From Myxococcales bacterium (GTDB taxonomy: Bacteria > Myxococcota_A > UBA9042 > JABWCM01 > BTVJ01): 64,000 bases of DNA. The position numbers were made by a program, and so were the translations under genes. The first letter of the stretch is position 1, and each line of letters begins with the position of its first letter. Under the pieces are notes generated by a model. The model was not told the origin of the DNA. It saw only the letters and a list, made by a program, of their open reading frames with translations, and did not search any database. Below are positions 54,411 through 62,476 of this stretch, piece after piece. The stretch lies in assembly GCA_045863395.1 (NCBI GenBank), contig BTVJ01000038.1, positions 1 through 64,000 of the forward strand, written 5' to 3'.

Positions 54411-55550
54411 ATGAAGCGACTCCTCCTCCTCACGACCTCTCTGGTGCTGTTCCCCGTTGCGGCCTCGGCGGCTCCCTGCCAGACCGACGCCGACTGCGAA
54501 GAGCGCGAGGTGTGCGTCCTCGCCCCCGGCGAGTGCCCCCCGTGCACCCCTGGCGGCGAGTGTCCCCCCTGCGATGAGCCCACCGCCGGCGAGTGCGCCC
54601 CAGCGGACGGTGGCGGCGGCTTCTGGTCGGGCCTCTCCTGCGAGGCCGACAGCGACTGCCCCGACCTGTTCACCTGCGACGAGGTGAGCGTCCCGTGCGC
54701 CATGCCCCCGACCTGCGGCTGCGCGGACTGCGACCCCGACGGCGGCGAGTGCCCCGAGTGTGACTGTCCCGAGGTGGACGAGACCCCCTGCGAGTCCGAG
54801 ACCGTGAAGACCTGCGTGTACGAGCCGGCCACCTGCGAGGCCGATGCCGACTGCGGCGCGGGCTTCGAGTGCTACGCGCAGGAGGTCTGCTCCGGCGGCG
54901 GGTCGAGCTGCGGCTGCGCGCCCTGCGCCGAAGGCGAGACCTGCGAGCCCTGCGAGTGTGACGACGAGCCGGTCTCCGACGAGGGCTCCTGCGAGACCGT
55001 CGGTAGCTATTGCGCCCCGAAGCCCACCCCCTGCAAGGCCGACGCCGACTGCCCCGAGGGCTGGGAGTGCGCCGCGCTCGACATGGGGTGCGCCTGCCCG
55101 GCCTGCGCCTGCGCCGACGGCGAGGAGTGCACGGGCTGCGGCGACTGCACGTGTGACAGCGAGGGCGATGGGCTCTGCCTCCCCGGCGGCTGGAGCGAGG
55201 CCGTCGCGGTGGCCGCGGACGCCGGTGGCGAGGGTGGTCAGGGTGGCGGCTCGGGCGGCGGCGCGTCCGGCCCGACCAAGGGCGGCCTGGGCGACTTCCT
55301 CGGCGGCGCCGCGGAGAGCTTCGACCAGGGCAACGGCGGCGGCAACGACAACGGCGGGGCCGGCGGCAACGACGACGGCTCGGGCGATGGGGCCGGTGGC
55401 GCTGGCGGCACGGGCGGCTCCGGCGGCTCGGGCAGCTCCGGCTGCGCGGTGACCGCCAGCGCGGCGACGGGCTTCGCCGCCATCTTCCTCGTGCTGCTCG
55501 CCATCTTCGCCGTGCTCACCCGCCGCGTCGCCGTCCGCGACGAGCAGTAG
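54411..55550 (+). CDS. Cys-rich secreted protein with MYXO-CTERM-like sorting signal
   Basis: Signal peptide, repeated C-x-x-D-x-DC modules, Gly-rich linker, SGC + TM helix + RR at the C-terminus. Confidence 0.75.
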   Translation: MKRLLLLTTSLVLFPVAASAAPCQTDADCEEREVCVLAPGECPPCTPGGECPPCDEPTAGECAPADGGGGFWSGLSCEADSDCPDLFTCDEVSVPCAMPPTCGCADCDPDGGECPECDCPEVDETPCESETVKTCVYEPATCEADADCGAGFECYAQEVCSGGGSSCGCAPCAEGETCEPCECDDEPVSDEGSCETVGSYCAPKPTPCKADADCPEGWECAALDMGCACPACACADGEECTGCGDCTCDSEGDGLCLPGGWSEAVAVAADAGGEGGQGGGSGGGASGPTKGGLGDFLGGAAESFDQGNGGGNDNGGAGGNDDGSGDGAGGAGGTGGSGGSGSSGCAVTASAATGFAAIFLVLLAIFAVLTRRVAVRDEQ

Positions 55551-58351: not shown

Positions 58352-59188
58352 ATGAAGGGCGAGTTCGAACGACTGTCACGGGCGCGCGAGGCGCTCGTCC
58401 CCCGGCTCCCCGCGACGCCGCGGGTGGCCATGATCCTGGGCTCGGGGCTCGGGGCTTTGGCGTCGGAGGTCGACGGCGCCGTCTCCATCCCCTACGGCGA
58501 GATCCCCGGCATGCCGGTCCCCCACGTCGACGGGCACGCGGGCCTCCTCGTGTGCGGCACGCTCGCAGGCCAGCAGGTCATGGTCTTCTCAGGCCGCGCC
58601 CACTGGTACGAGGGCCACCCCATCGAGGACGTCGTCTTCGCTTCCCGCCTCTCGCGCCTCTGCGGCGCGTCCATCCTCGCCGTGACCAACGCCGCGGGTG
58701 GTATCAACACGGACCTTCGACCCGGCAACCTCATGTCGATCCGCGACCACATCAACCTCATGGGGGTGAACCCCCTGCGCGGCCCCAACGACGAGCGCCT
58801 CGGCACGCGCTTCCCGGACATGACCGTCGCCTGGGATCGGGCGCTGCGCGGGGTGCTCCGCGCCGCGGCCAACGTGGAGGGGGTCCCGCTGTACTCGGGC
58901 GTCTACTGCGGCCTGTCCGGGCCCAGCTACGAGACGCCGGCCGAGATCCGCATGCTCCGAAAGCTCGGCGCCGACGCGGTCGGCATGTCGACCGTGCCAG
59001 AGGCCATCGCCGCCCGGCACATGGGCATGCGGGTCGTCGGCCTGTCCTGCATCACGAACCTCGGCGCGGGGCTGGGCTCGGCCGAGACCCTCAACCACGA
59101 CGAGGTCAAGGAGATGGGGCGCCAGGTGGCCGGCGACATGCGCCGCCTGGTCCTGCGCTTCCTCGCCATGCTCCCCGGTGACGAATGA
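58352..59188 (+). CDS. punA: Purine-nucleoside phosphorylase (trimeric PunA/XapA type)
   Basis: ILGSGLG, GHAG, GR.H.YEG, TNAAGG, GPSYETPAE, DAVGMSTVPE. Confidence 0.93.
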   Translation: MKGEFERLSRAREALVPRLPATPRVAMILGSGLGALASEVDGAVSIPYGEIPGMPVPHVDGHAGLLVCGTLAGQQVMVFSGRAHWYEGHPIEDVVFASRLSRLCGASILAVTNAAGGINTDLRPGNLMSIRDHINLMGVNPLRGPNDERLGTRFPDMTVAWDRALRGVLRAAANVEGVPLYSGVYCGLSGPSYETPAEIRMLRKLGADAVGMSTVPEAIAARHMGMRVVGLSCITNLGAGLGSAETLNHDEVKEMGRQVAGDMRRLVLRFLAMLPGDE

Positions 59189-59625
59189 CCGACCCGACAG
59201 TGATCGACGCGGAGCACCTCGCCCAGCTCGCCCGCGACGTGCGGGGGCGTGCCTATGCCCCCTACTCGCGCTTCCAGGTGGGCGCCGCCCTGCTCACCCG
59301 CGGCGGCGCCGTGCACCGGGGCGTGAACGTGGAGAACGCGGCCTACCCGGTGGGGCTCTGCGCGGAGCGGTGCGCCCTCGGGAGCGCCGTCGCCGCCGGA
59401 GATCGGGATCTGGTCGCCATCGCGGTGGTCGGTGGCGCGGAGCTGGTCTACCCCTGCGGCATGTGCCGGCAAGCCTTGACGGAGCTCTGCCCTGACATCC
59501 GTGTCATCCTCGTGACGACCGACCCGGCTGTCCCCGCCGTGGAGGTGTCGCTGCGGACCTTGCTCCCCCACGCCTTCGGGCCGGACGATCTGGCGGGCGG
59601 TCAGCTCCCCCCGACCAGCCGGTAG
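59185..59625 (+). CDS. cdd: Cytidine deaminase
   Basis: YAPYSRFQVGAA, NVEN, CAER, PCGMCRQ, LLP.AF. Confidence 0.95.
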   Translation: MTDPTVIDAEHLAQLARDVRGRAYAPYSRFQVGAALLTRGGAVHRGVNVENAAYPVGLCAERCALGSAVAAGDRDLVAIAVVGGAELVYPCGMCRQALTELCPDIRVILVTTDPAVPAVEVSLRTLLPHAFGPDDLAGGQLPPTSR

Positions 59626-59645
59626 GCACCCAGACCGCAGAACGG

Positions 59646-59681
59646 AAAAAAGGGGCCAGGCCCGAGAGCCTGACCCCTTTT
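59646..59681. terminator. Intrinsic terminator, strongest on the minus strand, probably bidirectional
   Basis: Minus-strand GGGGUCAGGCU-CUCG-GGCCUGGCCCC-U6; four T on the plus strand after cdd. Confidence 0.8.
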
Positions 59682-59776
59682 CCCGTCGATGCAAACCCTT
59701 GAAGGAGTCTGACCCTCCGAGCCGGAAGGAGGAGCGGCTCTTCGGGTCGGGTCGGCGGCGGGGCCGCCTTCCTGGC
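59646..59776 (-). ncRNA. Candidate sigma54-dependent small RNA (~130 nt)
   Basis: Bounded by a perfect sigma54 promoter and an intrinsic terminator; three internal stem-loops; G-U pairs fit only the minus-strand RNA. Confidence 0.6.
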
Positions 59777-59786
59777 TGGAGGCATG

Positions 59787-59802
59787 AGCAAGGGTCGTGC
59801 CA
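59787..59802 (-). promoter_or_regulatory. sigma54 (-24/-12) promoter
   Basis: TGGCACGACCCTTGCT matches consensus TGGCACG-N4-TTGCW exactly. Confidence 0.75.
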
Positions 59803-60002
59803 GCGCTGCGACCCTGCGCAGTTCCCCGGCTCCGCGTCGTGGGGCGAGCCTCCGGTGCCCTCCCGCCGCCGCCAATTGCGACATCTGTGTCATGGCCCCG
59901 CGCAGGATGTTTCGCGCACCTCCGACCCTCCCTGGTCGGGCGGGTGCGCCTTGACCCCTCGCCGGGCCATGCACCACAATGGCCGCTCGCCGTGGAGGCC
60001 CG

Positions 60003-61145
60003 ATGCCCGACTCCCGCTGCCGGGGTCGCGAGACCCCGAAGTTGCTCCGGTTCTGCTGGATTGGCGTGCTGCTCGCCTCCTGTGGCGCCTTCGGCGAGCG
60101 CGCGCCCGTCGTCGACCAGGATCTGAGCTGCCCGACCGTGGACCAGCAGATCCCGACCGTGATGGCGCTCATCGAGGAGGGGCGGCTCGCCGGGCTGCGG
60201 CAGGTCATCGAGGAGCACGTCAGCGACTCGCTCCGGGGGCAGGTGGTTGAGCTGGCCCTGGACATCGTGCGAGCGCTCCCGCCGGGGACCCTGGACGGGC
60301 TCCGCGTCGTGGTCCGCAACGAGGCCGTGTGGGCGCTGCTCCCCCTGGTGGCCGACGTGGGGCGCTTCGTGACCGACGGCGGGCGCTGGGAGGTGGTGCC
60401 CGTCGCGGCGGACCTCATCGTCCTCTGCCCCTCCGGGGAGCTGCTCCCCGTCCTCGGCGACCTGCTCCGCGACCCCATGATGCCGGACGCCCTTGCGCTG
60501 ATGCTCTCGGACCCGCAAGGGCTGGAGGCGTTGCTGGCGTCTCTGGGGGTCGATCTCGCCGACCCTGCGGCCCGGGAGGCGCTCCTCGCCCTCGTCGACA
60601 ACGTGCTCGCCAGCTTCGCGGCGCCGGGCTTCCGCCTCGACGAGCTGGAGGAGCTGCTCCTGGAGCTTGCGGACCTGGGCCTCATCGACCTGCGGACGCC
60701 GGCCATCCGGGGCCTGCTGGTCCTGGCGCACGAGGCCATGGACGCGCCCGGGCGCCTGGAGACGCTCCAGGGCTTCGTGGGCTGCCTTCGCACGGTGGAC
60801 CCGTCGCTCTCGCTCGTCGCCCTCATCTATGACCTCATCGCCGAGGGGGCCATCGCGCTCGACGACCTGAGCGCCGTCCTCGCGGTGGCGGACCCGGCCG
60901 CGGGGGGCGACGCCGTCCTCCGGCTCCTCGTGGACGTGCTCGACTTCCTGGCCACGGACGACGAGGCGCGTGGCAGCCTGGCCGACGTCCTGCTGACCAT
61001 CCTCGAGCCCGACGCGGCGAAGGTGGCGCTCCCGGACCTCGTGGTCCTGCTCGACGCGGGCGCGGTGCCCGAGGTGGTCGACCTGCTGGTGTCGCTGGTC
61101 TACGGCTGCCACGGGGGCGACGTGAAGCTCGGGGTGAGCCCGTGA
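60003..61145 (+). CDS. Hypothetical Leu-rich alpha-helical lipoprotein
   Basis: RBS GGAGG, lipobox LASC, GTGA overlap with the next gene. Confidence 0.65.
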   Translation: MPDSRCRGRETPKLLRFCWIGVLLASCGAFGERAPVVDQDLSCPTVDQQIPTVMALIEEGRLAGLRQVIEEHVSDSLRGQVVELALDIVRALPPGTLDGLRVVVRNEAVWALLPLVADVGRFVTDGGRWEVVPVAADLIVLCPSGELLPVLGDLLRDPMMPDALALMLSDPQGLEALLASLGVDLADPAAREALLALVDNVLASFAAPGFRLDELEELLLELADLGLIDLRTPAIRGLLVLAHEAMDAPGRLETLQGFVGCLRTVDPSLSLVALIYDLIAEGAIALDDLSAVLAVADPAAGGDAVLRLLVDVLDFLATDDEARGSLADVLLTILEPDAAKVALPDLVVLLDAGAVPEVVDLLVSLVYGCHGGDVKLGVSP

Positions 61146-62476
61146 GGCGGCTCGCGGCGCTCATCGTGGCGCTGGCGGCTCCCGCCCAGGCCAGCGTCTA
61201 CGACAGCTACGGCGCCAACCCCCGCGGCATGTCCATGGGGCAGGCGCTGATCTCCGCCGTCACCGACTACACCGCCACGTGGTACAACCCGGCGGCGCTG
61301 ACCATGCTCGGGCAGATGAGCTTCGGGCTCGGGTTCCAGGCGTCCTTCCCGTTCGTGGACGTGGAGCGGGGGCGGGCCGTGTGTACGGGCTCGGACTGCG
61401 GCGCCGGGACGAGCCCCTTCGACAGCGTGCTGCCGGAGCCCTTCAGCGGCTTCACCCTGGGCGTGCTCACCCCCTTCGGCGGCATCTTCGAGAACCGGGT
61501 GGCCTTCGGCATCAGCGCCTACCTGCCGGCCAACAACCTGATCCGGGCGGAGGGCCTCGACCCGCAGCGCCCCCAGTTCTACGCGCTCCAGAGCCTGCCG
61601 GACAAGTTCAACGTCCTCGGCGGCCTTGCCTACCGCCCCGTCGACTGGTTCTCCTTCGGCATCGGCTTCCAGGTGCTGGCCAACCTGGACGGCGCCGTGG
61701 ACCTGAAGCTCGACGTGCTCAATCACGCCTTCGAGCGCGCGGACATCGTGGTCCGCGTCAAGCCCAAGGCCAACCTGACCGCGGGCCTGCTGTTCGAGCC
61801 GGTCCCGGGGCTCCGCCTCGGCGCCGTGTGGCGCGGCGAGCTCGACCTCTCCTACGACCTGCCCGTGCAGGCGGACATCGGCGCCGCCATCCAGCTCAAG
61901 ATCGGCGTGTCCGAGACGGTGCTCTTCCAGCCGCACCAGGTCGGCTTCGGGGTGAGCTATGCGCTGGACGAGCCGCGGCTGCTGCTGTCCGCCGATCTGG
62001 TCTGGTCGCTCTGGTCGCGGGCGCCGGACCCCTCGCCCCACGTATCGCTGGACGTGGCGGGCACCCTCGTCGAGGGCCTCGGCATCGGCAGCACCTTGGA
62101 CGTGAACACCGCCGGGCGCACCATCGACATGGGCTTCGTGGACACCCTGTCCCCGCGCTTCGGGGTGGAGTACACGCCGGTCTATTGGTTCACCGTGCGG
62201 GGCGGGTACTTCTTCAGGCCCACGCCCGCGCCGCGCCAGACGGGGGCGACCAACTACCTGGACAACGACTCCCATGGGGGGAGCCTCGGGTTCGCGTTCA
62301 CCTTCGAGGACCCCCTGGAGGTGCACCGGACGCCCATCGTGCTGGAGCTGGGCAACCAGCTCACGGCGCTGTCGCGGCGCACCGTCCGCAAGGCGGACCG
62401 CGACGACCCGGTCGGCGATCTGAGTCACGGCGGCCTCGTCTACAGCGTGGGCGTGAGCGTCAGCCACAACTACTGA
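61142..62476 (+). CDS. OmpP1/FadL-family outer-membrane transporter
   Basis: Signal peptide, SMGQA...ATWYNPAAL hatch motif, beta-strand pattern, terminal aromatic residue. Confidence 0.8.
   Translation: MRRLAALIVALAAPAQASVYDSYGANPRGMSMGQALISAVTDYTATWYNPAALTMLGQMSFGLGFQASFPFVDVERGRAVCTGSDCGAGTSPFDSVLPEPFSGFTLGVLTPFGGIFENRVAFGISAYLPANNLIRAEGLDPQRPQFYALQSLPDKFNVLGGLAYRPVDWFSFGIGFQVLANLDGAVDLKLDVLNHAFERADIVVRVKPKANLTAGLLFEPVPGLRLGAVWRGELDLSYDLPVQADIGAAIQLKIGVSETVLFQPHQVGFGVSYALDEPRLLLSADLVWSLWSRAPDPSPHVSLDVAGTLVEGLGIGSTLDVNTAGRTIDMGFVDTLSPRFGVEYTPVYWFTVRGGYFFRPTPAPRQTGATNYLDNDSHGGSLGFAFTFEDPLEVHRTPIVLELGNQLTALSRRTVRKADRDDPVGDLSHGGLVYSVGVSVSHNY

Follow-up and report, generated by a model that had tools for sequence, protein, structure and literature searches.

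The 64,000-nt stretch of DNA analyzed here (hereafter the window; positions 1–64000 of the source contig, from a genome of 8.77 Mb with 70.9% G+C) contains an intergenic region between cdd and a divergently transcribed lipoprotein-like gene, in which a small RNA gene is predicted on the minus strand. The features of this region are as follows.

59645–59776, minus strand: predicted small RNA of ~132 nt, matched over its full length by covariance model R1 (36.3 bits; fold z-score –3.14).
59787–59802, minus strand: sigma-54 –24/–12 promoter box, with the predicted start at 59776.
59754–59768, minus strand: 5' hairpin 1, for which the 3' region is a possible alternative partner (outer stem).
59711–59748, minus strand: bulged hairpin with a CU-rich 10-nt loop (59725–59734), the likely pairing seed.
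59693–59710, minus strand: hairpin 3, weak, with the second CUCCUUC inside.
59645–59684, minus strand: intrinsic terminator-like hairpin and U run.
59879–59892, no strand assigned: palindrome TGACA-N4-TGTCA (one mismatch), 90 nt upstream of the box.
59185–59625, plus strand: cdd (identified by Pfam), the end of the pdp-nupC-punA-cdd operon, converging on the RNA.
60003–62476, plus strand: lipoprotein-like gene and FadL-like gene, divergent from the promoter.

The product of the lipoprotein-like gene (60003–61145) matches no Pfam, NCBIfam or Atlas family. Homologs of this gene are present in 52 of the 107 genomes of the class, with the FadL-like gene adjoining where checked, and the box together with the CU motif was found within 1.5 kb in 2 of the 29 such loci scanned. 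The neighboring FadL-like protein groups with Myxococcota. Elsewhere in the window, the gene at 54411–55550 encodes a Cys-rich protein of the secreted type, with a Gly-rich linker and a hydrophobic C-terminal tail, that has no Pfam or NCBIfam match and resembles a MYXO-CTERM substrate.

The sigma-54 box, the CU-loop hairpin and the terminator hairpin lie where the original prediction, made from the window sequence alone, had placed them. The observation that CUCCUUC occurs twice in the RNA is accurate as well (0.02 occurrences are expected per 130 nt at the genome rate), and so is the statement that the promoter faces no plausible open reading frame: the RNA contains neither AUG nor GUG, and its only UUG (59694) opens a frame of 255 codons that crosses the terminator and runs antisense to cdd and punA. 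The fold z-score of the opposite (plus) strand is –0.99, and the terminator alone folds at –29.6 versus –21.0 kcal/mol, which fits the argument that stem imperfections are wobble pairs only on the minus strand; for the RNA minus its terminator, the z-score is only –1.25. A simple terminator scanner listed no site at 59645–59684; the probable reason is that pairing is possible between the U run and the A run that precedes the stem. The terminator is likely to be shared with the converging cdd operon.

The genome encodes RpoN and yields 51 matches to the activator domain, 45 of them strong. There are 18 strict and 466 relaxed sigma-54 boxes in this genome; among the latter, 17 are followed by CTCCTT and 3 by a terminator-like end, and only the box at this locus is followed by both. 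The promoter scanner also reported one sigma-70-like site, which faces the lipoprotein gene. Public sequencing runs that contain this DNA number 20, and the contigs of six RNA-labeled runs were compared with the locus. In four of the six, contigs enter the RNA and stop at 59794, 59771, 59742 and 59720, the second of these being 5 nt from the predicted start; of the other two, one has a contig that runs through the promoter to 60005 and one has a contig ending at 59621. Contigs from two DNA runs cross the promoter. We consider this a weak hint of transcription given that the RNA contigs are unstranded and may hold DNA or cdd read-through; likewise, RNA cover is absent upstream of the promoter in five of the six runs, which proves nothing.

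A BLAST comparison of the region with 60 relatives, suggested in the original prediction, returned only short chance pieces, the source genome being the sole member of its taxonomic family in the comparison set; the homologs described below came instead from pattern and model searches. The box followed by CTCCTTC was matched in 18 of the 107 genomes of the class, including 9 of the 13 genomes of family f11, compared with a single match for the reversed control. A two-motif pattern identified nine metagenome contigs, all nine with the same layout. We aligned the nine f11 loci with eight of the nine metagenome loci (L127, identical to L099 over the stretch shown, was left out), to the exclusion of the window. 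In the consensus structure of this 17-row alignment, 95% of the cells are paired and 12 of the 19 pairs change on both sides (6 of 8 in the loop stem and 6 of 11 in the terminator), a level reached by none of 500 shuffles, with the caveat that the pair counts lean in favor of the structure because the same alignment served to derive it. Conservation is highest in the columns of the loop motif and of the second motif; two CCUCCUUC-type motifs stay fixed while the stems co-vary. The original prediction singled out the loop, which is indeed fixed, but the second CU motif is equally conserved in this alignment, its core being invariant in all 17 rows.

Because the first search pattern was taken from the window, the motif match is partly circular, and we therefore relied on three independent checks, namely a promoter-free model, synteny and the palindrome. 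Covariance model R1, built without the window and without the promoter, aligns the window RNA over its full length, the next best scores being 8.9 bits in the window and 14.2 bits in the genome; among 43 further loci that combine a box with a CU tract, none exceeds 15.3 bits. No second copy was detected in the genome with blastn and nhmmer. Among the genomes already identified, R1 scores G006 at 23.4 bits and G033 at 10.6 bits and does not match G001; it also matched six new genomes, in two of which (G039 and G023) the box lies upstream. The matches in G064, G047 and G080 were judged by eye to be driven by the terminator and were dropped, as was that in G054, which covers the terminator only. 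Altogether, the family comprises loci in 15 of the 107 genomes of the class (14 besides the source), from 5 of the 18 families, with a single copy in each genome, and in the nine metagenome contigs; many of the 92 class genomes that lack a homolog are incomplete. The box is upstream of all 23 family rows, most of which were found by a pattern containing the box.

Searches over a wider range were less productive. The pattern search of the phylum matched 14 of 401 genomes, and the 5 of these from outside the class did not resemble the family. Model R2 gave three weak matches outside the class among 151 genomes of the phylum, two of which, on inspection, look like coding or leader sequence; across the class, it gave seven further weak matches, none with the full layout. 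Viral contigs yielded 59 loci, with no family-like member among the matches listed.

The window shares with the R1 family the box, the CU-loop hairpin, the second CU motif, the terminator and the neighborhood, and promoter, loop and terminator are kept across five families. There are exceptions in individual copies: G001 keeps only the loop hairpin, the loop motif is missing from G039, and a clear U run is missing from several f11 copies. The loop motif is unpaired with a probability of 0.81–1.0 in all 22 of the 23 rows that have it, and the second CU motif with 0.43–0.99 across the rows (0.44 in the window). Hairpin 1, which the original prediction also included, is present in the window but has no fixed counterpart across the family. 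An alternative outer stem that closes both CU motifs is favored in f11, with no clear preference in the window, G006 and G033; in the window, this fold has –64.7 kcal/mol compared with –69.1 kcal/mol for the three-hairpin fold, a cost of 4.4 kcal/mol.

The gene neighborhoods provide a further link between these loci. The nupC-punA-cdd genes converge on the RNA in G023 and G033, and the RNA is divergent from lipoprotein and FadL-like genes in G001 and G006, in both cases as in the window. A TMEM260-like gene, which ties f11 to the remaining members of the family, is located beside the RNA or within about 3 kb of it in 13 of the 15 genomes; the best homolog of this gene in the source genome is on another contig. 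These neighborhoods also bear on the possibility that the RNA regulates the converging nucleoside operon in cis, as an antisense RNA, or is simply the terminator of that operon accompanied by chance motifs. The terminator can serve both strands, the RNA contigs join the region to cdd, and the low fold z-score of the body without its terminator would be expected under such a scenario; however, cdd converges on the RNA in only 3 of the 15 genomes, the inspected f11 loci and G001 have other neighbors, and promoter, palindrome and loop are conserved whatever the neighbor, so that we regard this explanation as very unlikely.

The palindrome upstream of the box, which is absent from the original prediction, occurs with at most one mismatch at –105 in G006, –79 in G023 and –78 in G033, three genomes that share it despite differing upstream neighbors, compared with a genome rate of 0.00065 per 150 nt. 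Weaker versions are present at several f11 loci, and none was seen upstream of the G001 copy. The distance from the box is the usual place of a sigma-54 enhancer and, judging from position and recurrence, the palindrome at 59879–59892 is likely to be the binding site of a sigma-54 activator. The combination of palindrome and box occurs at two other promoters in the genome, one of which lies on contig C130 beside the genes for a kinase and an NtrC-like regulator. At the latter locus (L119; C130:10283–10560), divergent from the kinase/regulator pair, palindrome and box are followed by a long hairpin with a CUCCUUC loop, with no terminator seen, which would make it a leader or a sibling RNA. At the other (C1:181850–182196, minus strand), they are followed by a ~135-nt structure with a long stem and CU-rich tracts that precedes a gene of 325 codons. 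A different palindrome, TGTRGA-N5-TCYACA, is found in f11 members (e.g., L106, L117, and L126) at about –113, at the 3' end of the TMEM260-like gene.

Rfam contains no family that matches the window at gathering score, in support of the uncatalogued status put forward in the original prediction; the best match, to CsrC, is limited to the 3' end (17.3 bits, where the cut-off is 61), and none of the 10 loci tested, 7 of them family members, has a match at gathering score. No published description of this RNA family was found in the mostly open-access literature searched. Given the conservation in five families, the compensatory changes, the synteny and the lack of an Rfam match, we conclude that the comparative data support a conserved, stand-alone gene for a real but uncatalogued small RNA with a predicted sigma-54 promoter, a member of a new family.

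With respect to the mode of action, the most plausible interpretation, to which we assign a probability of about 0.7, is that of a trans-acting, Hfq-independent RNA that is likely to be switched on by a sigma-54 activator and to repress mRNAs by pairing of the CU loop with their ribosome-binding sites. Under this scheme, an enhancer-binding protein would bind the palindrome and open the sigma-54 promoter; transcription would start at 59776 and end near 59645; pairing would be initiated by the 10-nt loop at GAAGGAGG-type sites without Hfq, with the second CU motif serving as a spare or a second seed; and the mRNAs blocked at their ribosome-binding sites would go untranslated. Of the original prediction of a small RNA that blocks ribosome-binding sites, the RNA itself is now backed by conservation, covariation and synteny, whereas the block is something that we still infer. 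If the RNA pairs with ribosome-binding sites, its seed should be fixed and exposed while the stem beneath co-varies, as is seen here, and neither Hfq nor CsrA was found in the genome. The loop complements AGGAGG, the most common upstream hexamer (577 of 6122 genes, by our own gene calls on the source genome), and at least nine complementary bases are present for 42 of the 6122 genes compared with 2 of 5802 coding controls. Ranking of targets in the genome gave no coherent set, the 42 genes matching equally well, and the two ribosome-binding sites quoted in the original prediction (before 53449 and before 31356) are real and, as it said, generic. Selectivity would then probably come from the accessibility of the mRNAs and from flanking pairs, and the regulon is therefore probably broad.

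The same features could be read differently if the RNA is real but its CU motifs bind a protein by mimicking the anti-Shine-Dalgarno tail of 16S rRNA (the assembly did not yield the genome's own 16S end for a direct comparison), in which case the RNA would titrate a ribosomal protein, a maturation factor or a tail-cutting nuclease. Protein decoys, too, typically expose two nearly identical motifs on a scaffold that is itself variable, and a seed this generic seems poorly suited to target selection. Nevertheless, the bases before the CU core vary among the homologs, and some copies have lost one motif or the other (G001, G039, and L101), which makes a protein decoy unlikely. Alternatively, the RNA might be a sponge or anti-RNA for one GGA-rich partner, either a small RNA or a single leader, rather than a broad repressor. 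The fixed 9-nt core ends in UUCC, unlike a plain complement of AGGAGG, and this may suggest a defined partner; against this, the genome contains 70 GAAGGAGG-N-ATG sites (counts of which do not separate genomes with the RNA from those without it), and CsrB-type partners are improbable because CsrA was not found, so that a sponge appears quite unlikely.

Returning to the preferred reading, a repressor acting through the CU loop, we find that the RNA is best viewed as resembling Pxr, NfeR1 and the cuckoo RNAs in its presumed action while belonging to none of them. In the accessible text of the respective reports, Pxr of Myxococcus xanthus is about 110–130 nt long, with a functional loop in the 5' hairpin for which the probe implies a C-rich tract, occurs in a long and a short form, blocks development, follows the two-component genes pxrR/pxrK and has been reported from Cystobacterineae alone (PMC5684412; PMC5568312). 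Also in M. xanthus, which lacks Hfq, Pxr and MXnc1 contact the Shine-Dalgarno regions of several mRNAs, according to the part of the preprint available (bioRxiv 10.1101/2025.09.11.675593). The RNA described here shares with Pxr the Myxococcota host, a predicted sigma-54 promoter (the conserved box at 59787–59802) with an upstream enhancer region, the multi-stem-loop structure and the lack of Hfq. Unlike Pxr, it has no adjacent activator gene, its neighbors being cdd and the lipoprotein-like/FadL-like pair, and it carries two CU motifs. With three mismatches allowed, the published Pxr probe finds nothing in the window, in a search where no true Pxr locus could be retrieved as a positive control (none among 201 genomes and none among 5). 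On both locus and SL1 sequence, we rejected membership in Pxr, although a remote relationship may exist.

With the cuckoo (alpha-r14) RNAs and NfeR1, the likeness consists in repeated, fixed anti-Shine-Dalgarno motifs exposed on variable stems. In the portions of the sources at hand, the cuckoo RNAs carry CCUCCUCCC in two to four hairpin loops and are confined to Alphaproteobacteria (PMC4615179; PMC10746234), and NfeR1, an Hfq-independent RNA whose anti-Shine-Dalgarno loops silence ntrB translation, has no sigma-54 signature (PMC10746234). The core in our family is instead CCUCCUUCC, with only one copy firmly in a loop, and the Rfam models of cuckoo/alpha-r14 give no match in the window at E ≤ 10; membership was rejected on motif, Rfam match and range, considering that the FadL-like neighbor groups with Myxococcota. 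CJnc230/FlmE of Campylobacter jejuni is described, in the text accessible to us, as RpoN-dependent, with an anti-Shine-Dalgarno stretch that pairs with ribosome-binding sites and represses translation, but it is processed from the flgE mRNA and has its seed between hairpins (PMC11187230), in contrast to the stand-alone gene and the loop seed seen here. A decoy of the CsrB/CsrC type was rejected because the loops are CU-rich rather than GGA on the promoter strand, the CsrC score is far below the cut-off and CsrA was not found; NcS25 was set aside as a comparison, there being no sigma-54 motif upstream of it in the available part of its description (PMC10117139).

Several other units combine a sigma-54 box with CU-rich sequences. 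One, about 80 nt long (L022–L098; 57 of 78 loci), consists of the box, a hairpin, an unpaired CU tract and a terminator; its hosts are nearly all titled Thermoanaerobaculia, Holophagae or Acidobacteriota, and in the loci checked it lies between murB and a sigma-54 activator gene. It resembles our family in the box, the CCUCCUCCUUC tract and the terminator, and differs in length, in its single unpaired tract and in its neighbors; R1 scores it at no more than 14.6 bits. In f4 and f12 (L110, L111, and L112), a sigma-54 unit that contains hairpins as well as CU tracts left unpaired, and that R1 does not match, is divergent from a carbon-nitrogen hydrolase gene. In f7 (L113, L114, and L116), the unit has two common fixed blocks of 14–16 bases, one before the CU motif and the other far downstream. 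Finally, L034 (Polyangiales) and L056 (Gammaproteobacteria) have a CU-rich loop or tract after the box, and their scores show no relation to R1.

We also considered a more far-reaching scenario, in which the RNA is a deep relative of Pxr, a sigma-54-driven, Hfq-free RNA of this C/U-loop design predates the fruiting myxobacteria and serves to dim mRNAs with strong initiation in general, and sigma-54 activators in lineages without Hfq, among them Acidobacteriota and members of other phyla, have the same design as their default output. This is doubtful at present; if true, it would push back the reported origin of Pxr-type control in Cystobacterineae.

The family is uncatalogued, and the proposed mechanism belongs to a known kind. 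What is known of riboregulation in Myxococcota comes mainly from Pxr and from MXnc1, a candidate, and the RNA described here would add a second conserved riboregulator family, in an uncultured class, for which the promoter, the likely activator site, the seed and the terminator have been mapped. The mapped parts make the design testable in M. xanthus reporters and bear on the question of how targets are chosen by a near-generic anti-Shine-Dalgarno seed without Hfq.
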